IMG/VR virus record: IMGVR_UViG_3300025133_000125
Location: 1 to 57,157 of that record
Source of the DNA: a virus
Lineage: Duplodnaviria > Caudoviricetes
DNA: 57,157 nucleotides
Direction: 5' to 3' (one strand)
Position 1 is the first letter of the stretch; each line of letters opens with the position of its first letter. Positions 3,001-32,600 of this stretch are shown here, piece after piece. The position numbers were made by a program, and so were the translations under genes. Under the pieces are notes generated by a model that saw only the letters and a list, made by a program, of their open reading frames with translations, was not told where the DNA came from and made no database searches.

Positions 3001-6000
3001 GTTATTTCACCTTCAGGTGTTACTTGAAATTTTGAAGATGAAATAAAGTACTGACTACTTGCATTACCCTCTAAATAAAACGAAGATCCTTGTTGTAATT
3101 TTGTACCATTAATATCAAAGCCTGCAATTTGTCCACTTGTTGCTGTAATATTACCTGTGATCTTAGCAGCTGAAGCAGTAATTTGTCCAGTAGAACCCTT
3201 TAACTTTAATACACCCACCTGGGAATCTATAGTGTTAGATATGTTAAATCCACCAATTGTTCCTGTACTTATATCTACATCATCAAAAGTACCAGTTGTT
3301 GCAGTAATATCACCTGTGATCTTAGCTGCTGATGCTGTTATTTGTCCTGATGCCTTTAATCGTAATCCCGTGTTTCCACTAGCACCACTTGAAGAGATCT
3401 CAGTTGATGTAATTCCAAAACCACCAATGGTTCCTGCTGTATTTGCAGTTATTGTATTAGCTATAATGTCACCAGTAATTGTTGCATCAGTAGCTGTTAT
3501 TGCACCTGCATGTGTAACCCTAAATGCCGGCGTTCCACCTGTCCCTGCTGTAAAGGCATAAGTTTGTCCTGAAGGGTGTATTCCTATACCTGTCGAAGTC
3601 AAACCTGTATTTGCTAAGGTAAAATTGGCTATATTGCCTGCTGTTGTTGCAGTAATTGTATTTGCTATAATGTCGCCTTGAATATTTGCTGAGGATGCAG
3701 TAAGTTGTCCAGATGCCTTAATATTAAATGGTGCACTACTACTTGCAGCAAGTGATGTTGCACCAGCAAAAAATCTTGAATCACCAGCTGAAGATAATCC
3801 TGTGTATGTAGGATCTGTAAAGTAATGTATTGTATCTGACTGAATATTCCAATTTGCGATATTACCTTCTGATGACGTTAATACACCTTCAATTTTTGCA
3901 CCACTTGCTATTAATTGTCCTGATGAAGATACTGCAAAATTAGATCCAAATCTTACATAATATGGATTTGAATTTGAGGGTGTGAAATCTAGATAATAGC
4001 CATCAGTTGGATTCGTGTCAGGGCCTGCATCTGACTTATATAATGCTGCTCCTTCTGCATCAAGAGTTGCATTAGAGCCGGATAATTTATTACCAAGTAT
4101 TTTCCACCCTGCTATTTGTCCTGAAGTTGCTGAAACAGCACCCGACATACTTACAGCAGATGCTGTAATTTGGCCTGTACTTTTTAAAATTAAATTATTA
4201 TTTGTAGAATTTATTTGTGAATCTGAAACACTAAAACCAGCAATTGTTGAAGCACCTTGTATTAGCGCGGCAGATGCTGTAATCTGTCCACTATCTTTTA
4301 AAATTAAGTTATCGTTTGTAGAATTTATTTGTGAATCTGAAACTTCAAATCCACCAATGGACGCGGATTTAAAACTTGCGAATCCTTGTGGATCAATAGA
4401 TGCTGATGCATTAGAAACTGTAGAAGGTGAGCCACCGATAGAAGCTGGCGTTCTAATATTATTTGCAGTTATGTCTCCTTGAACAGTTAATGTGTTCCCA
4501 ACATATTGAAGATAATGACCTGCAGATTTATTTCCTAATAATATTGAAGATCCTGTCATCTGACCTGATGATCTCAAAAATAATGAAGAATCTGATGATA
4601 TGATTGAGGTTGGATCTACAGTAAATCCTGCTATTGATGCTGACTTAAAACTTGCGAATCCTTGTGTATCAATAGATGCTGATGCATTTGCGTCAGTAGA
4701 AGGTTGGCCACCAATTGTTGCTGGCGTTCTAATATTATTTGCAGTTATGTCTCCTTGAACAGTTAATGTGTTCCCAACATATTGTAAATATTGACCATCA
4801 CCTTTGCTTCCAAGTATCATGTTACTAGCTGTTACATTACCCTTTGGTGTTAGATGAAAGTCAGATGAACTAATTTCTATATTACCACTACTACCACTTA
4901 TAAATTGTGATGTTGTAGTACCAACGAAAAAAGCATCTGCAATAACTTCAAATCTTGAAGGTATAGTACTAAATCTTAAACTTCCAGATTCACCTGCTAG
5001 CTCTAGACCAACACCGGCATAATCATCTCCTGAATCTGGTAAAACAGATCCGCTATAAATCATCCAACCAGTATTATTGTTACTTAAACTTGAACTTTTA
5101 AAACCTTGATACTGTACTGACCTTATAAATCCGGATCCGTCTGCTCCGGAGCCACCAGTCTCTGGTAATGTTGATGATACACCGCCCATCTGTATACCAC
5201 TTGATGTTGCGTCTCCGCCAATGAATAAAGACCCACCAATAGAATTATCATTTCCTAAAATATTAAGATTTTCACCTTCAAATTTTACACCGTCTGGGTT
5301 TGAGGGTAATGTTGTTACTACTGTGCTGGATTTATTATTATTTATATCATAAAATTCAAATGCAAAATCTAAATAATCTGGTCTAGTCTGAAGAGGAGGT
5401 ATTGGCGCAATTAATCTAACATATTCAGGGGAGAAATTTGTATCTGAGTTTGGTTTAACTGAAATTTCTGATACTGACCAATGACCACCTGTAAATCTCA
5501 TTTGCAATACAGCAGCTCCATCAGAATCAGGTGTAAATATAGTTTCATATTGTGGGCTTGATGCTCCTACTACACGCCCAGCTGAATCATTAAATTCAAC
5601 TTTACCAATTGCCCTTCCATAGCCTTTATCAGCAAAAGTATTATTTTGTGACATACCAAATGCAGATCCTGACATATGCAGTACTGCTTTAATTTTATTT
5701 TGTAAACCTTCAGAATTATCAGCAATTAATTTTGCACGGAAACTATATTCTGTTCCTGCTATAAAATCCATCTTAAAATCATCTTTTAATTGAAGCTTAA
5801 TCCACTCTTTATCATCATCTATCAATAAATCAGCATTTGATCCGGAGATGTAGATTGAATCTGTTAAGTATTCATTAGGAGAGTACGTCTGTATTGTTGT
5901 TGCTGACTCAGTACCATATTGACCACCTGTTGCAGTCCAGTATGATGTTAATACAGCATCAGAACTAAAAAATCCCATTCTAGATGTGCCAGATGTTGAT

Positions 6001-7236: not shown

Positions 7237-7416
7237 ATGAAAAGAGCTAGAATGTGTGTTTACTTAGATGTTGAACTATCTAAGTGGATTAAAGATAACG
7301 CAATAGTCAACTATAGAAGTTTTTCCTCGTTTCTTAATAAACTAATGTTAGATTATAAGGACGGAATGGAAATAAACAATAATGTAAAAACTTTAAAGAG
7401 CGAAATTAAAAGATAA
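7237..7416 (+). CDS. Ribbon-helix-helix (Arc/CopG-like) DNA-binding protein
   Basis: MKRARMCVYLDVELSKWIKDNAIVNYRSFSSFLNKLM fits a beta-strand plus two helices. GAAAGG precedes ATG 7237 (track start 7165 is probably too long). Fills an otherwise gene-free gap. Confidence 0.6.
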   Translation: MKRARMCVYLDVELSKWIKDNAIVNYRSFSSFLNKLMLDYKDGMEINNNVKTLKSEIKR

Positions 7417-10400
7417 TCTTACTATAGCCTTGTTCTTGCTTTATTTCAAGAAGAATATCCGTAAAATCTCGCATTGTGTCTATATGTGATATTATAAGAG
7501 AGAATTGATAAATATTTTTTAAATATTGGAACAGTTGGTATAATGAATTAAGATTGTCCGAGTCCATTGTTCCCCATCCTTCATCAATAGCTATAAAGTT
7601 AGGTCTTGGAAGATTTGATATATTTGTTAGGGCAATTCTGATAGCTAATCCTGAAATAAACTTTTCCATGCCTGATGCCATTTCTAATGCCCACGATTTA
7701 TCATTATCGTAAGCAATATAATTGTTTATATTCTTTCCGTCCATGTCAAAGATAATTTGGAAATCTACAATTTGTGATAGTATATTGTTGACCTCTAATT
7801 CAACCTTAGTTAAAACCTTAGATATTAAATCATAGCTTACACCATTTTTATCTACAGCCATTAAATAGTATTTATACGCTTCATATTTCTCTTCAAGATC
7901 TCTGACTCTATTAATAATCTGTACAATCTCTTGCTTTTTTGTTTCTAATGCTGATTTTTTACCGACATACTGGTGAATATCATTTACTACTGCTTTTATT
8001 TCTGTCTCAATAATTGACTCAGATGATTTTTGATCATTTATCTTTAATTGTACCCTATCATTATGCTTAATATCTTTTTGATAGCCTTTGCTTCTTTTAA
8101 TCTCATTTTTTATAGAGGAAATGTATGACTCAGTACTCTTAATAGCATCATTAATATCTGTTATTCTAACTTCATACTGCTCAAAGTATTTTTTGTTATT
8201 TTTTAGTTCCTTCGTCAAGTCTAAAAATTCACTATAAGACTTAGGTACATCCTCATTAATTTGTATTTTATTCTCTAGTGTCTTTAATTTTGCAACTGTT
8301 GATGTTGCCCTTGTCTTATCCTGTTCTAAATCTTCTTTTGTCTTTATTGCATCTTTAACAAATACATTATTCATGCAATACGAACACCCAGGATCGTAAT
8401 CCAAGTTTCCTAGCTTATCTATCTTATCTAATTTATTTCTTACTTCAACCTTTAAATTATCTATTTCGTTTTTTGCCTCATTCCTTTGTGATACTATTAA
8501 CTCATACTCAACAACCCTATTTTCAATATCCTTATATTTTTCAGATTTAATTCTGTTAGCTAAAATTTCATCATTTCTTTTAGTTTCACTTGATTCATCT
8601 TTTGTACTATTGAGCCTTTTTAATAATTCTACTTTTTTACCTTCCTCTAGTTGTTGGCTGTCTTCTAATTCTTTCAAGTCCTTAATTGTAGCATCAATTG
8701 GCCTCATTGTACCCATTAAATCTAAAATTTTATTCTTATATTTGTCTCGATCAATTTCTTTTTTGCTTTGAGAATCTTCAAGCTTTGTTATAACCCCTTT
8801 TACTAGATTTAGCTCAGTTTCAATATCACTTATTTGCTGATCATAATCTACATCTAAAAAATTCTTTAACATCGACTGTAATCCGCTAGATTCCTCTTTT
8901 GCCAGCTTATATAATTGATCAAAAATAGATAAGCCTAAAAACTTACCTAAAATTTCTTTCTTTTCAGTCTGATTTTGTTCTAAAAATATAGAAGAATTTC
9001 CTTGTGCTGAAAAACTTGTCATTATAAAGTCATCATACGTTCCTATCAGCTTTCTAATATTCTTATTTGTTGAATTTCTTTGATCACCATTTAATGATAC
9101 CTTCTTACCATCTTCTAGTCTGTAAAAATCAACATCAACACGAGTAGCACCGTGCCTTAAAACTTTTCCAACGCGTTTAATAACGTATGATTCGTTGCCA
9201 ACATCAAATTCTAACTCACAACTAAAGTTTGATTTAGAATGGTTCATGACATTTTCTGCCTTATATGCTCTTGTTGACTTATCAAATAGGCAAAATGCTA
9301 ATGCATCCAAAATACTTGATTTCCCACTTGCATTCGGGCTAAATAAACCAGCAATCCCATTACATCTTTCAAAATTAATTACATTATCTTCACCATAAGA
9401 AAACATATTGCTAAATGTAAACTTTTTTGGTTTCCAGCTAATATTTCTAGAAATCTCCTCACCTACTAAAGAGCTACTGAGCTCTTTATTAATTTTCTTT
9501 ACCTTTTCAATAATTTCTTCATTAGCTGTTGTATTATTTTTCAAGTATTGTTCTATTAAACCATTCTGCACATCTGGATCAAATACATCCCCAAAATCGA
9601 CTATAGATGAATTTCCTGTATCAACTCTATATTCATCTTCTCTTATTATTGAGACTTCTTTAATATTATGCCTGTGTTTGATTATTGTGAGTGCTTTTTT
9701 TAAATCAGAGCTTGATGTATTTTTAACTTTTATTCTTAATCTAGCTTTGGGTGGTAAGTCATCTACTTTTGGTACAAGACCATCTTCTATATGAAGAGTA
9801 TAATAACCAAATTCATTTTCTATTTCTTTATGAATAAATTTTCTCTTCTTGACATCCCAAACTGATATGCCGTGTCCTTTTAATGTTTCACCATGATTCT
9901 GTTGAACTAATGAACCGCAGTATCTTACAATAGGTTTTTTAATTTTACCAGGTTTATATTCTTGCATTGTTTGCATTTTATGAATATCACCTAACATCAC
10001 CATGTCATAACCATCAAAATCTTTTAATTTAACAGCACTTGGAAGATAGAAACCTAAGTCAGTTTGTGACTTATCAACTGTTCCGTGATATAATAATATT
10101 TTTGTTTTTGCATTGATTGTTGCTGGATCTGGTAAATTTGATTCACTATCTCTAACTTCTAATACAGCAAATCCAACATCACCTACATAATAAATCCCTG
10201 ACTCATTTAGATAATGTAAATTTTCATTTTTAATGTTCTCTACAATCGGCTGAAGTACATCTAATCTGGATCTGTTATTTAAATTACAATCATGATTTCC
10301 TGCAATTAATAATGTAGGACATAATTCAGATAAACGTTTAAACAATCTAGAAAGTTGATCAACTAATTCGGGTGACATATCAGTCTTACTATGAGCAATG

Positions 10401-10564
10401 TCACCGCCAATATAAACTACAGCATTTTCTGTATCTTTCTTTATAAACTCATATAAGTTTTCAAATACTTGCTCATATTCTTTATGGCGTTGTAAATTTC
10501 TAATTTGTATATCTGAAATATGATATATCTTTTTTAAGGTTCTAAATTTTGTTTTAATTTTCAT
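7406..10564 (-). CDS. Fused Mre11/SbcD nuclease + Rad50/SbcC ATPase (gp47-gp46-like)
   Basis: Phosphoesterase motifs HISDIQ, GGDIAH, GNHD, YHG, GDIH. Walker A PNASGKSS, Q-loop FSAQG, coiled coil with CSYC zinc hook, signature ASGMEK, Walker B IAIDEGWGTMD, H-loop IISH. Confidence 0.93.
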   Translation of the reverse strand: MKIKTKFRTLKKIYHISDIQIRNLQRHKEYEQVFENLYEFIKKDTENAVVYIGGDIAHSKTDMSPELVDQLSRLFKRLSELCPTLLIAGNHDCNLNNRSRLDVLQPIVENIKNENLHYLNESGIYYVGDVGFAVLEVRDSESNLPDPATINAKTKILLYHGTVDKSQTDLGFYLPSAVKLKDFDGYDMVMLGDIHKMQTMQEYKPGKIKKPIVRYCGSLVQQNHGETLKGHGISVWDVKKRKFIHKEIENEFGYYTLHIEDGLVPKVDDLPPKARLRIKVKNTSSSDLKKALTIIKHRHNIKEVSIIREDEYRVDTGNSSIVDFGDVFDPDVQNGLIEQYLKNNTTANEEIIEKVKKINKELSSSLVGEEISRNISWKPKKFTFSNMFSYGEDNVINFERCNGIAGLFSPNASGKSSILDALAFCLFDKSTRAYKAENVMNHSKSNFSCELEFDVGNESYVIKRVGKVLRHGATRVDVDFYRLEDGKKVSLNGDQRNSTNKNIRKLIGTYDDFIMTSFSAQGNSSIFLEQNQTEKKEILGKFLGLSIFDQLYKLAKEESSGLQSMLKNFLDVDYDQQISDIETELNLVKGVITKLEDSQSKKEIDRDKYKNKILDLMGTMRPIDATIKDLKELEDSQQLEEGKKVELLKRLNSTKDESSETKRNDEILANRIKSEKYKDIENRVVEYELIVSQRNEAKNEIDNLKVEVRNKLDKIDKLGNLDYDPGCSYCMNNVFVKDAIKTKEDLEQDKTRATSTVAKLKTLENKIQINEDVPKSYSEFLDLTKELKNNKKYFEQYEVRITDINDAIKSTESYISSIKNEIKRSKGYQKDIKHNDRVQLKINDQKSSESIIETEIKAVVNDIHQYVGKKSALETKKQEIVQIINRVRDLEEKYEAYKYYLMAVDKNGVSYDLISKVLTKVELEVNNILSQIVDFQIIFDMDGKNINNYIAYDNDKSWALEMASGMEKFISGLAIRIALTNISNLPRPNFIAIDEGWGTMDSDNLNSLYQLFQYLKNIYQFSLIISHIDTMRDFTDILLEIKQEQGYSKIIF

Positions 10565-18229: not shown

Positions 18230-18573
18230 TTTAATTTTATTCCAAACTTTTTTAGTTTCGCGTGTAATCCTAACATCCAAGAATAAACTGCCTTCTCAAT
18301 ATCTGCTTTGCCTTCATACTTTACTAATACTCTAAAGATGTCATTATTAATGTATTTTAAAGCTCTGGCCAAATCATAATCAGGAGCTTCTTCATTTACA
18401 GATTCTTTTTCTACTTTTTTAATTAGTTTTGCGCCGTCTTTTAATCCACTAGCAACTTTTTCAGCAGCTTCCTTTTCATTCTTTGCGCTAACAGTTTTGG
18501 ACATTAGGCCAGCAGAGCCAACATCAAAGTAAACTGTATACTTATCTTCTAATAAAGATTTTAATTTGATCAT
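18226..18573 (-). CDS. Putative head-packaged two-module protein
   Basis: MIKLKSLLE leader; KESVNEE linker. Confidence 0.65.
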   Translation of the reverse strand: MIKLKSLLEDKYTVYFDVGSAGLMSKTVSAKNEKEAAEKVASGLKDGAKLIKKVEKESVNEEAPDYDLARALKYINNDIFRVLVKYEGKADIEKAVYSWMLGLHAKLKKFGIKLK

Positions 18574-18995
18574 TTTGTCACCTTCTTAACTTTTTCAATT
18601 GAACGACCTGCGAAGTATGCTGCGTATACAGTCATTAATAGTGTTTGATAAACTGGCACATATGCAGCACCAATTGTAAAATCTTCACCTGCAATTTGCA
18701 AGTTCCCATCAAATACACTTAATACAGTAAAGACAGCAGTTAAAAATATCAATGTTAATGGTCTAATATTTTTTGATAACCAACTTCCGTGTTTCATATC
18801 AGCTTCCCATCTTGCTGATACTTGTGCTTGAGCTGCTTGTTCTGCTTTGGCTAAAATTTCAGTAATTCTTTCTTTTGCAGCGGCTTTCTCTTCACCTGAA
18901 GTATGTAAATTATCTATAATCCCACCTACATCTTTTAATGTATCACCACCTAATAGTGATCCAGCTGCCTTTCCTAGTGTTGCTAATAAACTCAT
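18570..18995 (-). CDS. Holin, GTA-type 'holin of 3TMs' family
   Basis: RWEADMKHGSWLSKNIRPL, TM segments, AYFAGRSIEK C-terminus. Confidence 0.8.
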   Translation of the reverse strand: MSLLATLGKAAGSLLGGDTLKDVGGIIDNLHTSGEEKAAAKERITEILAKAEQAAQAQVSARWEADMKHGSWLSKNIRPLTLIFLTAVFTVLSVFDGNLQIAGEDFTIGAAYVPVYQTLLMTVYAAYFAGRSIEKVKKVTK

Positions 18996-19006
18996 AACTA
19001 TTCTCC

Positions 19007-19342
19007 TTAGTATTCAAAACCCCAGGGTTCAGAATTATTTCCGCCCTTTATTGCATACCATATATCTTTAACTCTAAAATACCAAAATTTATTTGTCTCT
19101 AAAACATAAAATTCACCTTTAGGTGTTTTAAAACTTTTATTTGGTCCAAACTTAACTGTCATAGGTGCACCGTCATCCCACATCTTATCAGTCGTTTGAC
19201 CTTTTACCATCGTCCCATCACCAACAGCTTTATAAATTCTAGATCCTGGGTAATCTCCTTTTAGAGACGCCAAACCCTCAGGCATTCCTTCATTTAAAAT
19301 ACCTTCACATAGCATATCAATATTATCTTTTAACTTAATCAT
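19007..19342 (-). CDS. Putative head-packaged protein
   Basis: MIKLKDNI...GILNEG leader. Confidence 0.55.
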   Translation of the reverse strand: MIKLKDNIDMLCEGILNEGMPEGLASLKGDYPGSRIYKAVGDGTMVKGQTTDKMWDDGAPMTVKFGPNKSFKTPKGEFYVLETNKFWYFRVKDIWYAIKGGNNSEPWGFEY

Positions 19343-19713
19343 TAATAATCCTCACCAGCTATTGCTTCTTCAATTGCATCTTTAATATCTCCAGGCTCTA
19401 CATCAATCATACCATCCATATCGCCTTTCCATGTATCTATTTTATCACCGTTTATAAATAGCGCAATTGAAGGAAAATTTCTCAATCTTAATTTTTTACA
19501 ATATTTTTTTGTGTCTTCTGACATAGCTTTAATGATAATCGCATTTTCATGTCCCTTCACACCCTCAACGTATTTCATGCCATCACTTTCAGCCCACTTA
19601 GATGTAAATACAACTACAACTACTTTATCATTTATTCTTTCTTTAAAATTCTTATCAGTAACTTGTCCAAGCAAGGTAGATAAGAAAAATATTAATCCAA
19701 TTAAATATCTCAT
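19342..19713 (-). CDS. Exported thioredoxin-fold protein lacking CxxC
   Basis: Signal peptide; VTDKNFKE, VVVVFTSKWAES (WCxxC replaced), cis-Pro motif RNFPSIALFING. Confidence 0.75.
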   Translation of the reverse strand: MRYLIGLIFFLSTLLGQVTDKNFKERINDKVVVVVFTSKWAESDGMKYVEGVKGHENAIIIKAMSEDTKKYCKKLRLRNFPSIALFINGDKIDTWKGDMDGMIDVEPGDIKDAIEEAIAGEDY

Positions 19714-19722
19714 ATCTTACTC

Positions 19723-20319
19723 CTATTTCTTATCCTTTTTTCTTCGTTCAAGATCTTTAACATCTTTTTGTAATTCTTTCATTAAATCTTTTAACTCATC
19801 TAATGCACCAAATACATCATCTACATCATCTTGTAAACCGCCAACTTGAGACTTATATTGCTCAAAAGATCTTGGCCAATTATGGCCCCCTGGCTTTGAT
19901 GGATATTCCGCCTCATATAAACTTTCTAAACTCGGTAATTCTTTTGCTTCTTCAATCTCACTTTGTAATGCATACCACATACCAATCAATGAAGCAAGGC
20001 CTGTCCCAGCTGCTATCATAGTTTGAATTGATAATGTAAACTTAGTATCTAATACTTTATCTTCACTTATTTCGATTGGTTCTTTTTTCTTAGGTTCTAT
20101 TTTTTCAGCAATCACTTCTTGATGTTCTTCATGACCATTACCATTTTTTAATATAGTATCTGTTATATCCTCTAAAGAACAAAAACCTTTGTCAACAAGT
20201 ATTTCTCCAAGAGATCTTTTATCACCTTTAACTTGTGCCTGTAATGCTTGATTTAATTGTCTTCTTGTGATAATATCTTCATCACATAACAATTTACCTA
20301 TTTTAATATCTCCGTTCAT
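19723..20319 (-). CDS. MshEN-like (c-di-GMP receptor) domain + single TM + C-terminal coiled coil
   Basis: Two tandem 24-aa motifs, KIGKLLCDEDIITRRQLNQALQAQ and SLGEILVDKGFCSLEDITDTILKN, match RLGxxLLxxGLIxxxxLxxxLxxQ; TM LSIQTMIAAGTGLASLIGMWYAL. Confidence 0.75.
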   Translation of the reverse strand: MNGDIKIGKLLCDEDIITRRQLNQALQAQVKGDKRSLGEILVDKGFCSLEDITDTILKNGNGHEEHQEVIAEKIEPKKKEPIEISEDKVLDTKFTLSIQTMIAAGTGLASLIGMWYALQSEIEEAKELPSLESLYEAEYPSKPGGHNWPRSFEQYKSQVGGLQDDVDDVFGALDELKDLMKELQKDVKDLERRKKDKK

Positions 20320-20546
20320 AATATTTCTTTTAATACTTTCCTAAGCTTATTTGTGTCTCTATATTTTAATGCTTCTGCTAACTCTGTTTTTTGCTTAGCC
20401 CAAACAATTTTATCACTAAGCGATTCTAAAATAAATGATGCCCAATCAACTATAGCTTGATCGCTTTCATCTACTATATAATTAATTCTCTCACCAACTT
20501 TGCCGTCATCTTTGATGTAACTAGTTTTTTCTACACCTTTTTTCAA
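20316..20546 (-). CDS. Hypothetical protein
   Basis: TTG start with GGGAG SD; coupled to both neighbours. Confidence 0.6.
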   Translation of the reverse strand: MKKGVEKTSYIKDDGKVGERINYIVDESDQAIVDWASFILESLSDKIVWAKQKTELAEALKYRDTNKLRKVLKEIL

Positions 20547-20695
20547 CGTATTCTCCCATAAGGATTATTTTTAATTTTATTATCACCCTTAGCTAACCAT
20601 TTTTTATGTTGAACTGCAGTCCTACCTTCTGTTTTTAGCTTTTTATTTAATGCTGCTCTTTTACGCTTTCTATCTTTTGCTTTTTTATTTGGCAT
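20543..20695 (-). CDS. Small basic protein (50 aa; not in track)
   Basis: MPNKKAKDRKRKRAALNKKLKTEGRTAVQHKKWLAKGDNKIKNNPYGRIR; GGAG SD; fills the gap exactly. Confidence 0.7.
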   Translation of the reverse strand: MPNKKAKDRKRKRAALNKKLKTEGRTAVQHKKWLAKGDNKIKNNPYGRIR

Positions 20696-21279
20696 TAGTA
20701 ATACTCCGAGTAGAATGTAGCTGATGTATCTGTTCCTATAGCAACATTCTCAAATAATAGTAATCCGTTTTGTAATGTTTCGTTGTATGGATTCCAAAAA
20801 GTTCCCTCTACAACTCCATCAACTACATTATTTTCATTTCTAAGTATTGCTCCTTGAGCATTTGATGTGTAGTCTGACAAACCTACTATCTCTAATGTGA
20901 CACCCTTTGTAGATTGAGATGCTGGATTAACATAAGAACCCTCGTCAATTAAATCATCATTATTTATAGCATCAATGTCATATAAGATTAAAGCATAATG
21001 TTCTTTCTCAGGAGTTACTCTGCCGCCATCTTTTTGAAAGTGGATTACAAATACCTTTTTAACATCACCGCTATCTGTAAGCGTTCCCACACCGTAGGTA
21101 GTTACACTTTCATAATAATCATATACAGGTATTTCATCACCATTTAACCACATTTGAATTAACGCTTGTGGTTCTTCTTCATCCTTTCGGTCATCACAGC
21201 TTGACATCATAAATAATGATACCATCAATAACGAACCACAAATTACTCTTACTATATTATATACTTCTTCATGCTTCAT
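20695..21279 (-). CDS. Lipoprotein
   Basis: Hydrophobic stretch ending in lipobox-like MSSC, then an acidic linker and a beta-rich domain. Confidence 0.65.
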   Translation of the reverse strand: MKHEEVYNIVRVICGSLLMVSLFMMSSCDDRKDEEEPQALIQMWLNGDEIPVYDYYESVTTYGVGTLTDSGDVKKVFVIHFQKDGGRVTPEKEHYALILYDIDAINNDDLIDEGSYVNPASQSTKGVTLEIVGLSDYTSNAQGAILRNENNVVDGVVEGTFWNPYNETLQNGLLLFENVAIGTDTSATFYSEYY

Positions 21280-21280
21280 T

Positions 21281-22567
21281 CTAGAATCCCATAAATTGGT
21301 AGTTTAATCCAAACTTAAAGTCATAAGCTGGACGTTCCCAATAATATAAATATTTACCTTCGGCAAAGACTCCAAGATTGTCTTTTATTTTAACACCGAA
21401 TATCGCACCGTAATCATAATCATTCCATGTCATCCACATTGGATCCATATACATAAATTTATGTGGATCTTTGCCATCTTCTAAATGCGTAGCATAGTCT
21501 GCTGCATTATGATATGAATATTTGTCATGACCAAAATGATAAGGTAACCAATTACCCCAAGCATGAATCCACCAATTATCTGAATGATGATAATAATCCA
21601 TACCCAATACGATTGACGTTTCTTTTTGAAAACCAAGTCCTCGTTTAACTCCATCTATATATTCTTCTAACATACCTGGAAAATGATACACAAAATATTC
21701 TCTGTCTGTATAAGCAAATATTCTACCATCAGCATCTCTCCATAACCAATCGTGACCCCAATACTCTCCACCTTCATTCCAAAATGGACCAGAACCTTCA
21801 ATTGGTACCCATTCACCATTTACGTATTCTAATAGTTCGGATTCAATCCAATTACCATCTTCATCAATTGCATTTCCATCGGCCCACATATTATCGTCAA
21901 TACCAAAAGCATCTTCTGCAAAATCCCACCATGAACCACGATACCAAGTTGTGTCCAATACCATAGCATCAAATCCGTATACAGGATGTTGTCTATGTTT
22001 TGCACCAACACTTACTGTAAAGCCATTATCTAATACCGGTAACGTCCACTTTACTCTTAAATCACCTTGACTATATACAATATCTTCCAAGCCCAATTCT
22101 GACCAACCGACTTTGGCCATATACCAATCACCAGTATATCGTAACCAATATTCTTGATTAATGTATTCTTCGCCCCATTGACGACCTTCTGACCATTTAA
22201 ATAAGAATTCCCATCCTTTAACTGGTGCTATTGTTGCACTTTCATTAGCATTCTTTTCAGAACCATCGTACCAAGTACCACCTTTACCTGCGTTTTTAAC
22301 ACCTCGTTTTGGTTCATACTTAAATCTACCAATTTTTCTTAATCCAAATGATTTTTGAAAATCTGGCTGGAATTCTCTTTCATCCCTGGCGACTTCCAAT
22401 TGTCCAGTACTTAATCCACCAATTATACTGAATCTATCATCTTGATGCCGCGGAGCATTTAAGCTGAAACTTGCGTAAGCTGTAGAATATTTAAAAAATT
22501 TCCAAAGCTCTGTTTCAGCAAACAAAGATGAGGTTAACAGTAACCCAATTATAATGTTCTTTAACAT
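21281..22567 (-). CDS. Outer-membrane beta-barrel protein
   Basis: AGGAG SD before ATG 22567; signal peptide MLKNIIIGLLLTSSLFA; aromatic-rich alternating strands; C-terminal YDFKFGLNYQFMGF. Confidence 0.7.
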   Translation of the reverse strand: MLKNIIIGLLLTSSLFAETELWKFFKYSTAYASFSLNAPRHQDDRFSIIGGLSTGQLEVARDEREFQPDFQKSFGLRKIGRFKYEPKRGVKNAGKGGTWYDGSEKNANESATIAPVKGWEFLFKWSEGRQWGEEYINQEYWLRYTGDWYMAKVGWSELGLEDIVYSQGDLRVKWTLPVLDNGFTVSVGAKHRQHPVYGFDAMVLDTTWYRGSWWDFAEDAFGIDDNMWADGNAIDEDGNWIESELLEYVNGEWVPIEGSGPFWNEGGEYWGHDWLWRDADGRIFAYTDREYFVYHFPGMLEEYIDGVKRGLGFQKETSIVLGMDYYHHSDNWWIHAWGNWLPYHFGHDKYSYHNAADYATHLEDGKDPHKFMYMDPMWMTWNDYDYGAIFGVKIKDNLGVFAEGKYLYYWERPAYDFKFGLNYQFMGF

Positions 22568-22586: not shown

Positions 22587-23657
22587 TTAAATATCAAATC
22601 TTATCACAAAAGATAAAGCTAACTCAGGATCATTTCGTATTGGTCGTGAAGTTTTAGCAATAGCCAGTAAATCACCAAAGTCGTTATACAACCCAACTGT
22701 TGTAATATATGGTGCAAAAAATGAATGCGTTACCATATTATCAGCAGCAGGTGCAGCATTATATCCGCTTGCTTTATATGCAAACTCACCAGGTGCCAAT
22801 ATTTGTCGTAATGCATCTGTGTCAGCAGCCACAGAAGCAGGAATTGTTAAACTACCGCTTCTTTCTTTTGTTGCACTTATATTCATTGTACCATTATATT
22901 TTTCCATTGGAATCATACATGTGTATTCATGTTCGTAAACTGTTCTTGTTGCATCAAAATCTAATTTCCAACCAGTTGCATTTGATCCACCTGCTACATT
23001 TTCGTAATAACTTCCTGTTGATGAAATCATAATTAGGCCGTGATCATATGAAATAACTCCAAGTGACGACCCGGATCCTTCTGCTGTAGGTGTACCAGCT
23101 TTGAATTCTGATTCATATGCTGAATCATATAAATTTCCGCAACCGTCATCTTTAACTATTACAGCCGATCCGTTAGAATAATCTGTAAGCTCTATTGATC
23201 CTGATTTTATTCCTTCACCAAAAATTTTCTGTGGTATACTGATAACATTAACATCATTATAGATTCTTCTTAGCCCAAGCTCTTCATAAAGCACAGATCC
23301 GGAAGATGCTGGATGCCCAAATGGCATATGATATGAATCTAAAACATGTTGTGGTTGTGGTGATTGATATAGTCTATTATCTGAATGCGCAAATTCAAAG
23401 AAATTTAATTTAAGTTGTCTATATAGGGGCTCTTTATAAATTTTTATAACTTCACCTTTAGAATTTGAAACTGTATTAACTGCTGATGTACTTGTTTGAA
23501 ACCCAGGATTTCCTATTAAGCTACCTGTAATTGCATGTAAAGCCATAATATCATAATCAGTAGCAGTATCGACACCACCATAATACTGTACTGAAAATGT
23601 TTTATTAATTTCGTATGGAGTTACTCTTTTATCTTCTTTTCTAATTGGTGTGAACAT
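22587..23657 (-). CDS. Baseplate/tail structural protein
   Basis: C-terminal YITTVGLYND..LLAIAKTSRP; paralog of 23715..24737. Confidence 0.7.
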   Translation of the reverse strand: MFTPIRKEDKRVTPYEINKTFSVQYYGGVDTATDYDIMALHAITGSLIGNPGFQTSTSAVNTVSNSKGEVIKIYKEPLYRQLKLNFFEFAHSDNRLYQSPQPQHVLDSYHMPFGHPASSGSVLYEELGLRRIYNDVNVISIPQKIFGEGIKSGSIELTDYSNGSAVIVKDDGCGNLYDSAYESEFKAGTPTAEGSGSSLGVISYDHGLIMISSTGSYYENVAGGSNATGWKLDFDATRTVYEHEYTCMIPMEKYNGTMNISATKERSGSLTIPASVAADTDALRQILAPGEFAYKASGYNAAPAADNMVTHSFFAPYITTVGLYNDFGDLLAIAKTSRPIRNDPELALSFVIRFDI

Positions 23658-23714: not shown

Positions 23715-24737
23715 TTAGAAGTCTAATCTTACTTTTATCAATGCCTCTCTGCTAGATGATTTAAGTACTGGCCTAGAAAGTTTAGCAACAGCTAATAGTT
23801 CATTAGCATTATTATAAAGCCCTACCGTAGTAATATAAGATTGTGGATCTGTTCTAAATGAAGGAACTGCCAATTCATTTGTTGACGATGTAAAATATGT
23901 AGGATTCTGACTATGATTGTACATATTATGCTTAACTCTACAGAAATAATGTGTAGATCTTATTGATTCTTCTCTTCTAGATGAAAAGTAAGCGCCTTCT
24001 TGTATAGCTCGAACAAACCTTGCTGAATTACCGGCATCATCATCAGTAGATGTAACATAGCCTGCAAGAAAAGTTCCTGCACCTAATGCAGCTGCATCAA
24101 GTATTAATACACCTGATTCTGGATAAAATTTACCGAACGTGTCATCACCTGCTGGTGATACAGCAGTTCCAGAAGCAATAGAACCAGAAATTATATTAAA
24201 CTCTCTTGTTGTACTTTTAACTGTAGGGTCTTGTGTTGCGCCGCTATTATCAATAAGTTTTAAAAACCCTACACCTGATCCTGATAAGTGTAGTTCCCAA
24301 TTACCTGGATCCATCTTTTCTTTAAGGCGTCCACGATTTATAGAAATTGCAAATATTGCTTGTGATGATGTTGTATTTGTGCCTGCAGTGCCATCAAATT
24401 GAAAATACTCTGTATTTTGTGGCAATAATAAATTTCTAAACTGTCTATAAATTGCTTTTGATGCTGCATAATCTGCGTCACCAGTTTTAGAACCAGATCC
24501 TGCGTAGTGACCGTAAGCGGTAGAAAATTGTACAGAAGAAGTAGCATCAGTGCCAACCGGCCCCTGATATACATCTGAATAAAATTGTCCTGTGCTTCCA
24601 CTTTGCACAGAGGATGTATGAAAACTAGTTAGTGTTCCGACTCCGCCTGACCACATCCCTGAAGACACAATGCTTATCTGACTTGTGACCTTGTCATTTT
24701 CTTCTATTGTTGTGAATATACCTTGTTGTTGTGCCAT
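23715..24737 (-). CDS. Baseplate/tail structural protein
   Basis: C-terminal YITTVGLYNN.NELLAVAKLSRP; Ser/Gly/Thr-rich. Confidence 0.7.
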   Translation of the reverse strand: MAQQQGIFTTIEENDKVTSQISIVSSGMWSGGVGTLTSFHTSSVQSGSTGQFYSDVYQGPVGTDATSSVQFSTAYGHYAGSGSKTGDADYAASKAIYRQFRNLLLPQNTEYFQFDGTAGTNTTSSQAIFAISINRGRLKEKMDPGNWELHLSGSGVGFLKLIDNSGATQDPTVKSTTREFNIISGSIASGTAVSPAGDDTFGKFYPESGVLILDAAALGAGTFLAGYVTSTDDDAGNSARFVRAIQEGAYFSSRREESIRSTHYFCRVKHNMYNHSQNPTYFTSSTNELAVPSFRTDPQSYITTVGLYNNANELLAVAKLSRPVLKSSSREALIKVRLDF

Positions 24738-26689: not shown

Positions 26690-29600
26690 TTATTCATTAC
26701 TGAAATCTACTGTTAAATTATTATTGTCCCCCTTCTTGTCAACCTTGACAGAATAGGGATTTGTTTCATAAATTTCCACTGCTTGTAGAACGCCGTCAGG
26801 TGATCTTGAGCCATCATTTTTACATCCTTCGTAAGCTAATCTAAAAAGCCCTGTATGACTGTTATAAACAGATTCGTACTCACTATACTGATATGATGAT
26901 GAGTATGCCAATCCTAACGATGCACTTAAAGATGATGAATAAAATGGTATCGTCTCTTTATTAAATGATGATTTTCTAGATGCGGTAATCATAGGTTGAA
27001 AATTTTCAAAAAATATATCAGATCCTCCAGCCATATAAACTTGAGAATCAGCATAGTCGCGAGCTTCTGACAAGGGTTCATCAAGTGGATCTTTACCAAA
27101 TCCTTTTAAAGTGGGCATATAGGTCATTGGCCCTTGCTCTGAATTAAATTTTTCTGTCTCAAATTCATCTCTACTTGATTTAATTGAACCAGTTTGACAT
27201 AATCCTATTGATACGTAATCATGTCTAGATCCTGTTGTTTTTCCTGTCAACACTGTATCAGAAATATTACCCGTTTTAAAATCATAAATACTTTCTGCAG
27301 GTATCGGTAAAACTGATGTTGATGCTGTGGAATATTTAAATAAACTGGTTGGCTCCGGATATGTTGCATCAATTTCTGCATTTTTAGCAATATCTTTGAA
27401 TATAGGTGGTGCTCCCATAACAACTTTTGGTCTTTCTAAAAGATGTGACTCTATTAATAAACCAATATTCTTTTTAGCACGAGCAGGAGCTAGTTTTCTT
27501 ATATGATCAAAAAGGCTAAGATCATAATACTTTATTAATTTGATATAATCCCAAAATCCTTGTCGTGTTGTCCATTTTTTCCAATATGTGTCTGTAATTC
27601 CATCTAAGTTACCATGTGTATATCGTTCCTCATACACGTCACGAGGATCCCCAATATATTTAGCAAAATCCAAGTCAGCAAGTGATAACATAATATCTTC
27701 ATTAATAACATCTGAAGGGGCAAAAAATACCCCCAATTTATTTGAGTCTAATCCAGCGTTATCAAATGAGCTTATCTCTACTCTTTCTGTAGGACTTAAA
27801 TTTGCTTTTCCTCCGTCTGGAGATTTGAGTGTAGCACTTTCAATTCTTATCTTATTAGCTTGTGAACCAAATCCTATTTTAGGAACAAAAGCCTTTTGTC
27901 TATCTGCTACATTGCTAAAATTAATTTCATCAGAGAATCCGGATCCAGTAACGTATACTTGACCATCTGTATGCGTGTAATCTTTTAACCCTTTGGGATT
28001 ATCATATAAGTTAATATAATCATCCATAGATAATCTAAAACTTAAATCATAGTATGATGAACTAGGATTGTTTCCATTAACTGCTTTGGGTGCACCAACA
28101 TGATTCCAAAATGCATTTGCATTAAGTGGTGTTGACCAATATCTAAACTCCATCATAGACCCACTAAATTGTGTACCTATACTACCATCAGCATTTCCAC
28201 CAAGATACCATCTATTAGCGGGAGTAGTACTACCTGTTGTGTACCATCCTGATAATGTACTTCCCGATACTGTCATGCTTCCTGATTCTTTTATTTTAAT
28301 TCGATCCATTCCTGCATCGTAATATCCAAGAAACATATCAAAACTTTGTGTAGTAGCAGTCAAATCATTATCAAAATATTGTTCAGTATAACTATCATCC
28401 ATAGAGCCTGTTCGTCTTCTAACCATTAATGACCAGTACTCGTTATTATAAATCCCATGATCAGTAATACTCATACTTTGCACACTGTCAGATCCGCTTA
28501 CAAAAAAGTTAATTTGCCCCTTGCCATCAATGGCCTGATCAGCAGGCCCAAGCACTGCTGTAGCAATTGCACCACTTCCCACAGAAGTATTCTGATGTAT
28601 TGTTATTGTGGGCGCGCTAGTGTAACCAAAACCACCATTTGTCACAGTAATTCCTGTAATTCTACCATTTGCAGGATTTACAGTCGGCGTTCCCGTGGCT
28701 CCGGAGCCTCCTCCACCAGAAAATGTTACCCAAGTTTCTAATGGCAAATAATCTGATCCTACCACGTCCATAGTCACACTACTTATAGGAGACCCAACTG
28801 TTGTCTTAAGATAAATTGCCGCCTCTGTTTTGCCATTACCATCGAGTTTATTTGCTAATATCTGATTTGCCTCATAAGGTGTTTTAAATCTCATTTCAAT
28901 AGTATCAGGTGCTTTTTCTTTTGATGTATGATACCACGGCACTTGAATAGATTGTCCTCCCTTAAAATCTAATGCCTTTGTAAATTTTTGTTTTATTTCA
29001 AAATCTGGTTCTCCTGTCGGTCTTGGGCCTCCGTATTCTTGTATTCTTAAAATAGAGGTTGGTATACCATAAGCAGAAAGTAATGCCTTTAAAGATTGTT
29101 TCGTACCTTTTGTTTTTAGCATATACGGCATTGTAGATAAAATTCTATTCCATATCTCCCTTGTTACATCTTTTTGTGATTTTTTTGTGTATCTGATATT
29201 ATAAATACCACTTTTAGAGCCAGATTCTGATAGACCTAAATGATATTGAGGAAGCGAAACAAGATCACGCCCTTCTATCATATCAAAACCAAGTGAGTTA
29301 GCTACTGGTTCTACTAATGCTTGTGAAATTCCTTTTGTTACATCTTCACTTCTATCATGAACATCTGATAATGCTTTTATATGCGTCCAAATAATATCGT
29401 AATGGTGTCCCATCATATCCATAAAATGTAAAAATTCTATATTTTCTCTATCAGTAGAAATATGCTCAGGTAAAAGATTAACTAATCTATTTCTATTATT
29501 TCTATCATAAAGACGTGCAGTGTCAGCTGCGCTACTATACCACTCTGTAAATTGAGAGCTGGTAACTGAATATAAAACATATGGACTAGTTAACGTTCCA

Positions 29601-32600
29601 TCTCCAGATATTTTTGGTGCACTGTTATCAAAAAATTCACCCAAAGAACTTGTTACATATGCTTCATGTTCAAAATACATATAATTTTCAAAATCATCAA
29701 AACCATTAATCACACTTCTAACAGAATTTTCCCATCTTCTTATTTCAGAAGCTGAGCCACTTACAGCTGATCCAGCTGTATTGAGTAAATAACCAGCAGA
29801 GTCACCTGTTCCACTCAATGATGCACTGTTTGCTTTATATGTTTCGATATTTGTTAATTTTATTTTAAAATTATTTATTCTCTTTTCTGCAGAACTAAAA
29901 TGAACAAAATTTTCATATTGCCTATAGTCTATATTAATATTAACATTTTCTAAGCTTCCACTTAAAATTCTATCTTCTAATTGATCCTTAACGCTTTGTT
30001 CATTGCCAATTAAATCAGTATGTGTTTTATATTCTGTTGCTCTATCTCTTATGGGTATTTCTACATCTGACCAGTTAGGTTGTCTTAAGACGGTTTCAGG
30101 TAATTTTTCTTCAATGAAAGGATTAAGATCAATTGTTTCTCTAAGTGTAGGTGTAACTTCTTCAGCAATAAAAACTGTATCAAGAGGTTCAATTCCAACT
30201 TCAAGTGGTTTTATTAATTTGTATGCTATGCTTCCTGGATATGTTTCAGAACTTATTGGCTTGAAATTTGTTATTAGTGATTTTGAATCATCATTCGGAA
30301 TAATATATGTATAAAGATTATCTGCATCTTTTGAGCGAAAACGAACAAAGTAATCATCAAGTGTAGTTGTTGATAAATTTACTGCGTCAGGTCCCGTCAT
30401 TACAGCATTAATTTCATTTCCATATTCTTCATATGATTTGTTTAGTATTAATTTTTTTTGTGTTTCTAAATCATTTTGAACATCTAAAATTTTTCCTTCA
30501 TATCTTGCATAAATATTTTCTGATCCACTTGGTTGTGATATATAGCCTACTGAAAACCCTGAATCAAATGATGAGTACTTATTGACGCCATAGCTTGATA
30601 CTATTCCACCTTGTTCTTCTGATGCTTCAGTATATGTTTTATCAACTTCAATTTGATTTTCATTGAATATATTTGTTATTGTAAATTCTAAAGGACCTAA
30701 TACAGCATTTTCCTGTACTTCAGGTCGATCTAGTGAACTCTTAATAATTGAAAGATCAAATTTATCTCCCCACACTGTACCAAAAGCCCCATAATGCCCT
30801 CTTACTTCTATAAAAATAGGCATGTCTAGTGCAAAAAAATCTGTAATTTCAAATTCTAAAGTTGCTTTTTCCCATTGATTATATTCCTGGCAAGGAGAAT
30901 GACTAATAGCACTTGGCCCTGAATTAAGTGCTTCTGTTCTATATGTTCTTCGATATAATGTTACATTTTCACCTTCAACCTCATATCTAGTAGACCAACT
31001 AATAGAGCCGCCTCCTTCATATCGTGTAGTCCAATCACCGTAATTGGTGCCACCAATATTTCTATTCCATACAAAGACACCGTCACTAGAAATATTTACA
31101 TTTGTTGGATAGTCTTCATAAGAAGGGTAATAGAGTTCAGCGGCTAAATACTTTGATCCGAGTTGACCCCCGGGCAAGGCGGTGTATGCAAACTTTCTAA
31201 AAGCATTTGGACTCATCTCATCTTCACCCGGCCATACTGCTGCATCTAATCTTGCCATTGTCCAATATCCAAAGTAATCATCAGTATAATTACTATCCGC
31301 ATTATATGAAAAGTCCCATTCATTTGTTGTTACCCAATACCACTTGAATGCTTCTGATTGTTCAATCTCGCCTGCATCAGTTATATAATCACCGCCAGCT
31401 CCTGATGCAGTAGGATTGTCTACGCCATATTGATCCAAAAAGGAAGAGACTTGATCTCCATCTGTATTCGCCCAATTGGGTTCTAAATCTACTGGTGCGT
31501 GATTATCACTATACGCAGCAAAATTATCTGGACCTCCATAGTGTAAATGAAATGCTCTATCCTCTGCCCAGACATCGTCATCTGTTACCATTAACGGTTC
31601 AGGTGGCGCTATGTCTGTTGCAGTCCAATGATTTATTCCTACCCATAATCCTTTTCTACCACCTTGTTCAAAATCAATAGGATCGGATTTTTGCATCCAT
31701 GTAACCAGAACTTTATCACCAGCCCTTACTCCATAAGCAGATAATGCGCCAATTCCTTTATAGTTTTTATTATTTATATTATCACCCTGATATGAGTAAA
31801 TTTGTAAATGTCTATGTGCATAATCATTTTTACTAGCAAGCACATCTTCACTTGGTACTACTTTTCCAAATGCATCTCCTGCGTCTCTTCTTGCTTGCAC
31901 CATTTGATCAAAAATATAATCTTGATAGTTTAAATCTGGAAAACACATTGCAACACCGCCGTCTACACCTTTACCTGCTTTCCAATGAGCATGATAACCT
32001 ATGTCTGCTGTGCCAACATAATATTGTGACCAAGCTAAACTAGATAATCCGTTACTCCATCGTCTAACATCCTTGTCAGTTGTCACCCTTATTGCTTGAC
32101 CATTTAATGCAGCATCTGGAAGATGATAATAATATGGAGATCCTCCTTCGTCTCTTTTTTCTTGATTATTTTGATGCACAACTGCGACTTCTCCACCCTG
32201 TGTTGGGTCTCCTACAGCACCATTTGCGGCCTGCATATCCCATTCATAAATTTTTTCACTTTCAATTTCAGATATTATAAAGTCAGATGATAAATCTAAA
32301 ATAGGATGTGCATCATTTATTATAAGTTTTCCACCAGCCATTATTGATTTAAATTCATCACCGTCTGCTAATTCACCAATTATAATTTTCCCATCAGGGT
32401 CATCAAATTTTAATATAGTATCTATTGGCTGTTCTTTAAATAATTCATCATTACTACCTTCTCTATGAAATGGTGTCAAGGTAACTCCAGGTTCTAATTG
32501 TGCTCCTGCAGTTAAAAAATATTTTGTGTTAATATTAGCTAAATTTGATGGGTCCCAATTATCTCTTGGTTCCCATATAATTCTTATTAACAGCTTATTA

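Follow-up and report, generated by a model that had tools for sequence, protein, structure and literature searches.

Gene layout of the locus

The window is a 57,157-nt stretch of DNA that makes up a Caudoviricetes record (IMGVR_UViG_3300025133_000125). An earlier note on it had described a beta-barrel, a lipoprotein, an inner-membrane protein with an MshEN-like domain and an exported coiled coil (hereafter the MshEN-TM protein), an exported thioredoxin fold without CxxC, and a holin. The coordinates it had assigned were confirmed: all of these ORFs are present on the minus strand, and no overlap or gap exceeds 19 nt (Table 1). The late promoter that it had placed near 23676 found no support. 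A scan for sigma-70-like sites gave 51 against 54.3 expected, and no T4-type late box was seen on reading the sequence. The lipoprotein gene lies upstream of the MshEN-TM gene, with two small ORFs between them (20316..20695) that probably do not belong to the module and are mere passengers. A third small ORF, of 111 aa (19007..19342), has no Pfam or PHROG match and is not conserved.

Table 1. Features of the cassette and its surroundings in the window
Feature	Position	Strand	Basis
Exported 428-aa protein, probable outer-membrane beta-barrel	21281..22567	-	ORF and conserved termini
194-aa lipoprotein, clade-specific	20695..21279	-	lipobox ending in Cys28
50-aa basic ORF	20543-20695	-	found at 16 loci, position varies
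76-aa ORF	20316-20546	-	found at 0/80 loci
198-aa MshEN-TM protein	19723-20319	-	NF053729, predicted TM and coiled coil
Cytoplasmic MshEN-type domain, residues 6-55	20155..20304	-	NF053729
Predicted membrane anchor, residues 95-118	19966..20037	-	alignments; conserved ELSED motif just before
Exported C-terminal part of the 198-aa protein	19726..19965	-	phrog_6664; EYPSxPxGxNWPR motif, heptad-rich helix
Exported thioredoxin-fold protein, 123 aa, no CxxC	19342..19713	-	PF00085
111-aa ORF between thioredoxin and holin genes	19007..19342	-	found at 0/80 loci
Holin	18570..18995	-	phrog_3427
Second small membrane protein, 108 aa	16520..16846	-	two hydrophobic segments

Features of the encoded proteins

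The 428-aa protein begins with a signal peptide (residues 1-17) and ends in FGLNYQFMGF, of which the GLNYQF portion may resemble enterobacterial porin C-termini. The combination of a signal peptide with a C-terminal aromatic beta-signal, as looked for in outer-membrane barrels, is thus present, and both elements are retained across 54 unique homologues and down to 24-40% identity. Distant homologues (340-430 aa) have a signal peptide and, in most cases, an aromatic last residue. A crude period-2 hydrophobicity scan revealed about 12 amphipathic segments, with 11% of positions above the 95th percentile of shuffles. In two language-model look-ups, which serve as leads only, the nearest named Atlas clusters were exclusively outer-membrane barrel families (0.93-0.94). 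The protein has no sequence match in Pfam, PHROG, NCBIfam or the PDB, and PF24653 (Phage_OMP) gave none even at E 10. It is likely an outer-membrane beta-barrel; the conserved signal peptide and C-terminal motif are in keeping with this part of the earlier proposal, with the fold predicted from sequence features only. Barrel identity is 68-93% over the 80 loci of the window's clade, versus 35-49% for the neighbouring genes.

Among the minus-strand ORFs of the window, only that of the lipoprotein has a credible lipobox. This ends in Cys28, after which comes a run of acidic residues; an alignment of 36 sequences shows no variation at Cys28 or Asp30. This stretch reads C-D-D-R-K-D-E-E-E in the window and C-E-D-x-R-V-E-E in most homologues, and is similar, although not identical, to the signals of surface lipoproteins bearing an LES in Bacteroidota, for which published surface-export motifs include C-X-K-(D/E)2-X, SDDFE and SDDDD (PMC5080379).

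Residues 6-55 of the MshEN-TM protein match NCBIfam NF053729 (c-di-GMP motif, MshE-related) with 45.8 bits (cut-off 38, E 3.7e-12) and align to both 24-residue motifs. The family profile matches the N-domains of PilF, PilB and MshE in the PDB (E 2e-9 to 1e-3); Pfam T2SSE_N gave no match up to E 1. In the MshEN consensus, Arg-Leu-Gly opens both motifs. Motif 1 opens with K-I-G in most of 32 aligned members, as it does in the window, and with R-L-G in a minority, while motif 2 reads R-(S/T)-(L/I)-G, with Ser or Thr at the position of the Arg of MshE. The predicted anchor is marginally hydrophobic in the window copy (below 1.5 in a 19-residue Kyte-Doolittle window). An N-in topology is favoured by flanking charge, because the C-side flank is acidic (net -4, versus -1 on the N-side). 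Residues 99-194 are matched by phrog_6664 (E 1.4e-5).

The thioredoxin-fold protein matches PF00085 over residues 17-99 with 26.7 bits (gathering cut-off 23.5); further NCBIfam thioredoxin matches are weaker and below their cut-offs. A Gln stands right after the signal peptide, Gln17 is invariant and cis-Pro81 is kept. CxxC occurs in 0/39 aligned sequences; at its position the window has W-A-E-S-D, and clades B and C (see below) have WNxxN. The protein is therefore not a redox enzyme. At 26 loci of the window's clade, the thioredoxin gene is followed by one for a POPDC/cNMP-binding membrane protein.

The holin matches phrog_3427 (E 7e-28 over residues 19-140) and has a single strong hydrophobic segment (residues 77-95); Pfam GTA_holin_3TM scored 17.6 bits, under its cut-off. 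The 108-aa membrane protein is possibly holin-like, with weak matches to phrog_1544 and phrog_9990, the former also weakly matched by a clade-B holin-like cluster. Its homologues (27 loci by tblastn, 28 loci in cluster 13) often lie immediately after the thioredoxin gene. The lipobox with its invariant cysteine and the profile matches uphold the earlier assignments of the lipoprotein, the MshEN-like domain, the Cys-less exported thioredoxin and the holin.

A conserved trio across viral clades

The conserved unit is a trio consisting of the barrel, the thioredoxin fold and a membrane-anchored coiled-coil protein that corresponds to the MshEN-TM protein's C-terminal half. Three diverged viral contig sets (80, 86 and 51 loci) contain this trio, and the identity of the barrel falls as low as about 33%. 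In clade A, that of the window, 44 loci extend 2.5 kb or more beyond the barrel on its downstream side; the MshEN-TM protein and the thioredoxin fold are present at all of them, and the lipoprotein is kept at 37. Both trio partners accompany the barrel at 59/70 loci in clade B, where it is about 33% identical to that of the window. A search anchored on the thioredoxin found the coiled-coil gene immediately before the thioredoxin gene at 49/51 loci and the barrel at 42 of the 43 loci whose upstream sequence is 1.5 kb or longer. The trio is intact despite a changed gene order (coiled-coil, thioredoxin, barrel) at loci L164-L167, and the thioredoxin gene invariably comes after that of the coiled-coil protein.

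Clade-B and clade-C orthologues of the MshEN-TM protein (92-120 aa) comprise the C-terminal half alone, with a stub, a TM segment and the coiled coil; the MshEN domain is missing from every one of them. HMM searches of the other clades did not recover the lipoprotein, and both it and the MshEN domain are confined to the clade of the window. The co-conservation of four envelope genes that the earlier note had envisaged thus holds within this clade, whereas the unit conserved beyond it is the trio, the lipoprotein being clade-specific. With the MshEN domain so confined, c-di-GMP sensing, which had been proposed as one possible input of the complex, cannot be the core function. GGDEF genes were found neither in the window nor in four related records. 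Eight control genomes matched GGDEF, and Bacteroides thetaiotaomicron was not among them.

Phages that carry the trio are an abundant group of uncultured marine phages. The signal peptide closes with [AGST]Q in 110/110 unique thioredoxins, 77/82 clade-B barrels and 74/74 Cys-rich neighbours, versus 2-15% of control windows. A Q-rule for signal peptides has been described (PMC10367356), and these signal-peptide features point to Bacteroidota hosts.

Lysis-gene context

In two of the three contig sets the trio directly adjoins holin-like genes and several endolysin families (Peptidase_M15_3/phrog_894; Amidase_2 with PG_binding_1; phrog_33083/phrog_3000). A recognised holin or endolysin occurs at 28/47 wide clade-B loci, within 1 kb at 26 of them. 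In clade C, 43 loci have 2 kb or more of downstream sequence; within 2 kb, 26 of them have an endolysin, 29 a holin-like gene and 24 both. Homologues of the holin lie near the trio at 10/29 wide clade-A loci (within 2.5 kb) and 19/47 wide clade-B loci. The link to lysis genes that had been drawn from the nearby holin therefore extends well beyond the window, into clades B and C. No endolysin was found in the window, or near the cassette in the window's own clade; five larger related records have between them a lone SLT-domain ORF, about 14 kb from the barrel.

The coiled-coil proteins have no spanin PHROG match, and one of ten weakly matches a holin/anti-holin PHROG (E 0.005). No lipobox ORF is embedded in or overlaps the coiled-coil gene at 54 clade-A or 68 clade-B loci. 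A lipobox-like Cys occurs in only 9/68 clade-B thioredoxin copies, the signal peptide otherwise being of the ordinary type I. The exported part of the short coiled-coil orthologues is only about 60-80 residues, too short to cross the periplasm alone. Pfam and PHROG scans of the cassette proteins returned no lysis-inhibition family.

Proposed function of the trio

We put at about one half the probability that the trio is a conserved lysis-cassette module, whose most likely job is outer-membrane disruption, the last step of lysis. The coiled-coil protein would be the inner-membrane anchor, N-in and i-spanin-like, the thioredoxin fold a redox-dead adaptor in the periplasm, and the barrel an outer-membrane anchor in place of the lipoprotein of canonical spanins. 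Once holin and endolysin have removed the cell wall, this bridge would collapse or cluster, and the outer membrane would rupture. In the window's clade, the inner-membrane protein appears to have gained a cytoplasmic MshEN-type domain that could provide a c-di-GMP input, and the set to have acquired a lipoprotein whose signal resembles one for surface export. We tentatively suggest a three-part outer-membrane disruption machine in marine Bacteroidota phages, with c-di-GMP-type gating from the cytoplasm in the clade of the window. If so, two-component spanins, unimolecular spanins and disruptins would be joined by a further class; the literature and databases searched yielded no account of a module of this kind.

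Several observations count against a role in lysis. These are the lack of an endolysin near the cassette in the window's clade, the presence there of the recognised holin within 2.5 kb at no more than 10/29 wide loci, the short exported part of the coiled-coil proteins and their lack of a spanin PHROG match. Spanins evolve fast, unlike the barrel, which is far more conserved than its neighbours. Moreover, genes adjoining lysis cassettes need not act in lysis, as illustrated by lambda bor.

A sensory trans-envelope complex, adjusting holin timing or detecting superinfection in the manner of T4 rI/rIII and reading c-di-GMP through its MshEN domain, appears unlikely. It would accommodate the above-cut-off MshEN-type domain, the holin genes in the vicinity, the weak holin/anti-holin match of one coiled-coil orthologue and the POPDC/cNMP-binding protein, which would be a second cyclic-nucleotide-type sensor beside the cassette. 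However, since clades B and C lack the MshEN domain, sensing cannot explain why the trio is conserved. The Lys or Ser/Thr at the key Arg positions of most members, the lack of GGDEF in the window and the four related records, and that of lysis-inhibition families in the scans, also argue against it.

We regard as decidedly improbable an envelope-remodelling or superinfection-exclusion set, a larger counterpart of Lom/Bor that is produced in the course of infection, masks receptors or alters the outer membrane and merely adjoins lysis genes. Across several rearrangements and cassette types the trio remains linked to holins and endolysins, a receptor mask would not be expected to have a coiled-coil partner in the inner membrane, and no PADLOC defence family was matched. 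On the other side, the window barrel follows genes of the tail-fibre region, which in Flavobacterium phage immuto contains fibre and spike genes; its strong conservation fits contact with a conserved host component, and the signal on the lipoprotein resembles one for surface export. Phage outer-membrane barrels are also widespread, with 1,603 reported in 1,303 huge phages, some of them transcribed (preprint 10.64898/2026.10.24.761521).

If the 428-aa protein were not a membrane barrel and instead a secreted or virion-associated beta-rich protein, the envelope-spanning picture would fail. Its lack of any family or PDB match, its modest amphipathicity signal and the position of its gene after structural genes would fit such a protein, which is nevertheless very unlikely given the signal peptide and aromatic C-terminus kept at low identity and the two Atlas look-ups that name barrel families only. 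There is scarcely any case for an auxiliary porin or uptake channel with unrelated neighbours, since barrels of 10-22 strands do lie beside transport genes in aquatic phages (preprint 10.64898/2026.10.24.761521) but no transport gene is near the barrel in the window or the loci examined, and the barrel is linked to the coiled-coil, thioredoxin and lysis genes.

Comparison with known systems

The T4 rI/rIII proteins are likewise envelope proteins that could relay a signal and whose genes lie near that of a holin; their parts are different, and Pfam and PHROG scans gave no sequence relation. The thioredoxin-fold protein shares with PF00085 a fold-level sequence match and the cis-Pro loop, but differs in being exported and in lacking CxxC. 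Whereas the MshEN domains of MshE, PilB, PilF and NfrB belong to ATPases or glycosyltransferases, that of the window is joined to a membrane anchor followed by an exported coiled coil, and differs from the MshE type in the substituted arginines of both motifs.

Lambda Lom is a phage-encoded outer-membrane barrel. Like Lom, the huge-phage OMPs and PF24653, the window barrel is a phage-encoded signal-peptide protein with OMP-type termini. It differs in matching neither PF24653 nor any Pfam OMP family, and in forming a constant trio with partners of the inner membrane and the periplasm in lysis cassettes, a context that section 10 of the preprint on phage barrels does not report (10.64898/2026.10.24.761521).

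In layout and location there is a partial parallel with spanins. In two-component spanins such as lambda Rz/Rz1, the inner-membrane protein is anchored at its N-terminus and carries an exported coiled coil, and its gene is tightly coupled to that of an exported partner. The coiled-coil gene of the window is similarly coupled to the gene of an exported partner and adjoins lysis genes, in phages of diderm hosts; the trio lies in lysis cassettes in clades B and C, and in the window the holin is 347 nt downstream of the thioredoxin gene. The arrangement of stub, TM segment and coiled coil, which we take to match i-spanin architecture, is clear in the 92-120-aa orthologues, the window copy having its marginal hydrophobic segment after a 94-residue cytoplasmic extension. 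In spanins the partner is an o-spanin, a small outer-membrane lipoprotein whose gene lies within, overlaps or adjoins that of the i-spanin; here the gene downstream encodes a thioredoxin fold that bears an ordinary signal peptide, and no lipobox ORF lies within or overlaps the coiled-coil gene at the 54 clade-A and 68 clade-B loci. The trio proteins have no sequence similarity to spanin PHROGs, and a large, unusually conserved barrel is an obligatory third member. The trio may represent a new means by which the outer membrane of bacteria is broken.

Conserved unit of the cassette

The barrel, the transmembrane coiled-coil protein and the Cys-less exported thioredoxin fold (the trio) recur in three diverged sets of viral contigs, clades A, B and C. 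Clade A, to which the window belongs, comprises 80 loci with 68-93% identity, obtained by scanning viral contigs with the barrel. The earlier note had proposed a four-gene envelope-spanning cassette of barrel, lipoprotein, MshEN-TM protein and thioredoxin fold; in clade A, the MshEN-TM and thioredoxin-fold genes are present in all 44 loci with at least 2.5 kb of downstream sequence, and the lipoprotein in 37 of these. Two distant barrel relatives led to a further 86 viral loci, clade B, in which HMM and cluster analysis placed the barrel alongside a thioredoxin fold and a short protein (92-120 residues). This short protein aligns solely with the C-terminal half of the 198-residue window protein, from a common ELSED motif onward. 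Both partners accompany the barrel in 59 of the 70 clade-B loci having sufficient downstream DNA, and the order is altered in loci L164-L167 (coiled coil, thioredoxin, barrel). Clade C (51 loci) was found independently with the thioredoxin gene as the start; the coiled-coil gene lies immediately upstream of it in 49 of the 51 loci, and the barrel was found in 42 of the 43 with at least 1.5 kb upstream.

Neither the lipoprotein nor the MshEN domain was detected in clades B and C. Both are confined to clade A, and the conserved unit is therefore the trio; the lipoprotein and the MshEN domain, on which the earlier note had focused, are clade-specific additions. The module occurs very commonly in ocean metagenomes; for the coiled-coil protein alone, clustering at 90% identity gives 3,243 clusters. 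Coordinates are summarized in the table.

Location of the cassette genes and of other features in the window and in individual loci
Feature	Location	Strand	Length	Remarks
Giant ORF	3-7127	minus	at least 2,375 aa	runs past the window end
Apparent fused SbcCD	7406-10564	minus	1,052 aa	single protein; calcineurin-like phosphoesterase (SbcD/Mre11-like) N-terminus and SbcC/SMC-like ATPase
Holin	18570-18995	minus
Thioredoxin fold	19342-19713	minus		exported, Cys-less
MshEN-TM protein	19723-20319	minus	198 aa	C-terminal half is the coiled-coil protein of the trio
Lipoprotein	20695-21279	minus
Predicted barrel	21281-22567	minus	428 aa
Paralogous pair, first member	22587-23657	minus	356 aa
Paralogous pair, second member	23715-24737	minus	340 aa
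Giant ORF	26690-34120	minus	2,476 aa
Pilin-like genes, clade A	L008:10237-13151
Cys-rich protein, clade B	L129:6707-7399; L088:7017-7706		~231 aa
Pro-rich lipoprotein, clade B	L090:6778-6963		61 aa
DUF5675/phrog_1501 protein	L103:5139-5615

Proteins encoded in the window

The open reading frames proposed for the cassette are present and closely packed, and most of their assignments were borne out; the late promoter suggested upstream was unsupported. The holin matches phrog_3427 (E 7e-28). The thioredoxin fold scores 26.7 bits against a Pfam cut-off of 23.5, and all 39 aligned relatives are without CxxC, though the cis-Pro is retained. Residues 6-55 of the MshEN-TM protein match an NCBIfam family, the MshE-related c-di-GMP motif domain, with 45.8 bits (curated cut-off 38), and the profile of the protein family matches the N-domains of PilF, PilB and MshE in the PDB. 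C-terminal to this domain are a segment of moderate hydrophobicity and an exported, conserved coiled-coil region. Cys28 of the lipoprotein is invariant among homologues, with acidic residues directly following, and the gene is the sole credible lipobox ORF among the minus-strand ORFs of the window. The lipoprotein gave no credible match to PDB sequences, and a PADLOC search with the cassette proteins gave none.

The assignment of an outer-membrane barrel stands as a prediction from sequence, supported by a conserved signal peptide and a conserved C-terminus (...GLNYQFMGF) and not by any family or PDB sequence match. The protein contains about 12 amphipathic segments of period 2, and its named language-model neighbours are outer-membrane barrel families only. 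Searching 1.84 billion representatives with a profile returned 276 distant relatives, among them proteins of 340-430 residues (24-40% identity) that have a signal peptide as well, most of them ending in an aromatic residue. Phage-encoded barrels are now widely reported (preprint 10.64898/2026.10.24.761521), and section 10 of that preprint describes neither this trio nor a lysis context.

Source and distribution

The window is a 57-kb piece of a virus record with an estimated completeness of 31%. All of its long ORFs are on the minus strand, and its gene content includes a baseplate wedge protein, a primase and an SbcCD-like nuclease. Homologues of the second member of the paralogous pair are found in Flavobacterium phage immuto, Microcystis phage Mel-JY01 and Rhodothermus phage RM378; the window phage is therefore a large myovirus of the type known as Far-T4. 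The two members of the pair share a C-terminal ...TTVGLYN...LLA(I/V)AK..RP... motif. Their immuto homologues are also paired, immediately upstream of the tail fibre and spike genes, and the homologues in all three phages are annotated as hypothetical.

Among cultured phages, there was no DNA match to the region and no protein match to the barrel, the coiled-coil protein or the clade-B versions of both. The sole match of the window thioredoxin-fold protein in the phage collection is a hypothetical protein of ssRNA phage SRR5466337_2 (NC_073930.1, 199-450, H8/H9; 32% identity, E 4e-5). Cellular genomes gave two matches only, on contigs of metagenome-assembled genomes labelled Candidatus Pelagibacter (L082 and L083), both with the phage barrel; L082 (NHHP01000001.1, 72 kb) also contains the MshEN-TM and thioredoxin genes. 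These contigs are probably viral DNA mis-binned with a low-GC host genome.

Neighbouring lysis genes

The trio of clades B and C adjoins several endolysin families (Peptidase_M15_3/phrog_894; Amidase_2 with PG_binding_1; a phrog_33083/phrog_3000 protein), as well as phrog_3427-like holins and a 74-residue protein with two TM segments. A recognised holin or endolysin is present in 28 of 47 wide-flank clade-B loci, in 26 of them within 1 kb. Where clade-C loci offer 2 kb or more of downstream sequence (43 loci), an endolysin lies within 2 kb in 26, a holin-like gene is found in 29 and both in 24; a typical order, as in L172-L200, runs from the barrel through the coiled coil, thioredoxin and small two-TM protein to the endolysin. 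The link is weaker in clade A, where 10 of 29 wide loci have the holin no more than 2.5 kb away. No endolysin was found within the window, and the sole endolysin-type match in five larger related records is one SLT ORF, about 14 kb from the barrel. A DUF5675/phrog_1501 protein, which may be a further wall-active enzyme, recurs close to the trio in clades B and C (28 loci and further matches).

MshEN domain and associated genes

The earlier note had suggested a complex that links host c-di-GMP state or superinfection to lysis timing, exclusion or outer-membrane remodelling. An Arg important in the MshEN motif is replaced by Lys in most members, and the second motif has Ser or Thr at the position of the MshE Arg. 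Neither the window nor four related records contain a GGDEF gene; among the control genomes, Bacteroides thetaiotaomicron gave no GGDEF match. A regulatory input is possible in clade A, but the system does not have it as its core.

Up to four type IV pilin-like genes (N_methyl, PF07963) directly follow the thioredoxin gene in 18 clade-A loci, a striking pairing of pseudopilins with a protein bearing a pilus-ATPase-type MshEN domain. A POPDC/cNMP-binding membrane protein is encoded after the thioredoxin gene in 26 clade-A loci. Both kinds of gene are absent from the window.

Host signature

Signal-peptide ends were scored by counting the [AGST]Q motif, with control windows for comparison. Every one of the 110 unique thioredoxins and of the 74 Cys-rich neighbours has it at the end of the signal peptide, as do 77 of 82 barrels in clade B and 25 of 72 in clade A; the frequency in control windows is 2-15%. 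Gln after the signal peptidase I cleavage site is described as a distinctive Bacteroidetes feature (PMC10367356), and the acidic stretch after the Cys of the window lipoprotein resembles Bacteroidetes export signals (PMC5080379). The Cys-rich neighbour is a secreted protein encoded after the barrel in 77 clade-B loci, at the position of the clade-A lipoprotein. Its sequence combines an acidic motif containing Cys with an extended stretch of repeats rich in D, E, V, T and Y, and gave no Pfam or PHROG match.

Proposed role in outer-membrane disruption

The lysis cassette of phages of diderm hosts usually consists of a holin, an endolysin and a spanin. With holin and endolysin accounted for, the remaining conserved genes encode an inner-membrane coiled coil, an exported protein directly after it and an outer-membrane-type protein. 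The coiled-coil protein resembles in architecture the i-spanin of two-component spanins, and its gene neither contains nor overlaps a lipoprotein ORF in 54 clade-A and 68 clade-B loci. Therefore, the trio is proposed to be equivalent to a spanin bridge, a reading to which we assign a probability of about 0.5. The barrel would be the anchor of this bridge at the outer membrane, and the redox-dead thioredoxin fold may serve as its adaptor in the periplasm; of the thioredoxin folds in the 68 clade-B loci, 9 themselves bear a lipobox-like Cys. Against a spanin equivalent are the unusually high conservation of the barrel, the lack of any match to spanin PHROGs and the short exported helix. In one clade-B locus (L090), a Pro-rich lipoprotein with a perfect lipobox, resembling a classical o-spanin, is encoded immediately after the barrel; this could be a hybrid arrangement.

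Little is understood of how Bacteroidota phages breach the outer membrane, and recognisable spanins are missing from many phages of diderm hosts. Literature searched on MshEN in phages, spanins with barrels or Flavobacterium, and thioredoxin in lysis cassettes yielded no account of the module. If the trio performs the outer-membrane step, this gap would be closed for an abundant marine phage group and the thioredoxin fold would acquire a new role. The phage would also make its own barrel, through the host assembly machinery, as a lysis component, and the MshEN fusion would be a natural example of second-messenger input to lysis. A bolder reading than that of a spanin equivalent is that the trio may be a new class of outer-membrane disruption machine. 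On the reading preferred here, at roughly even odds, the trio serves the outer-membrane step as a module of the lysis cassette, a variant within a known kind of function.
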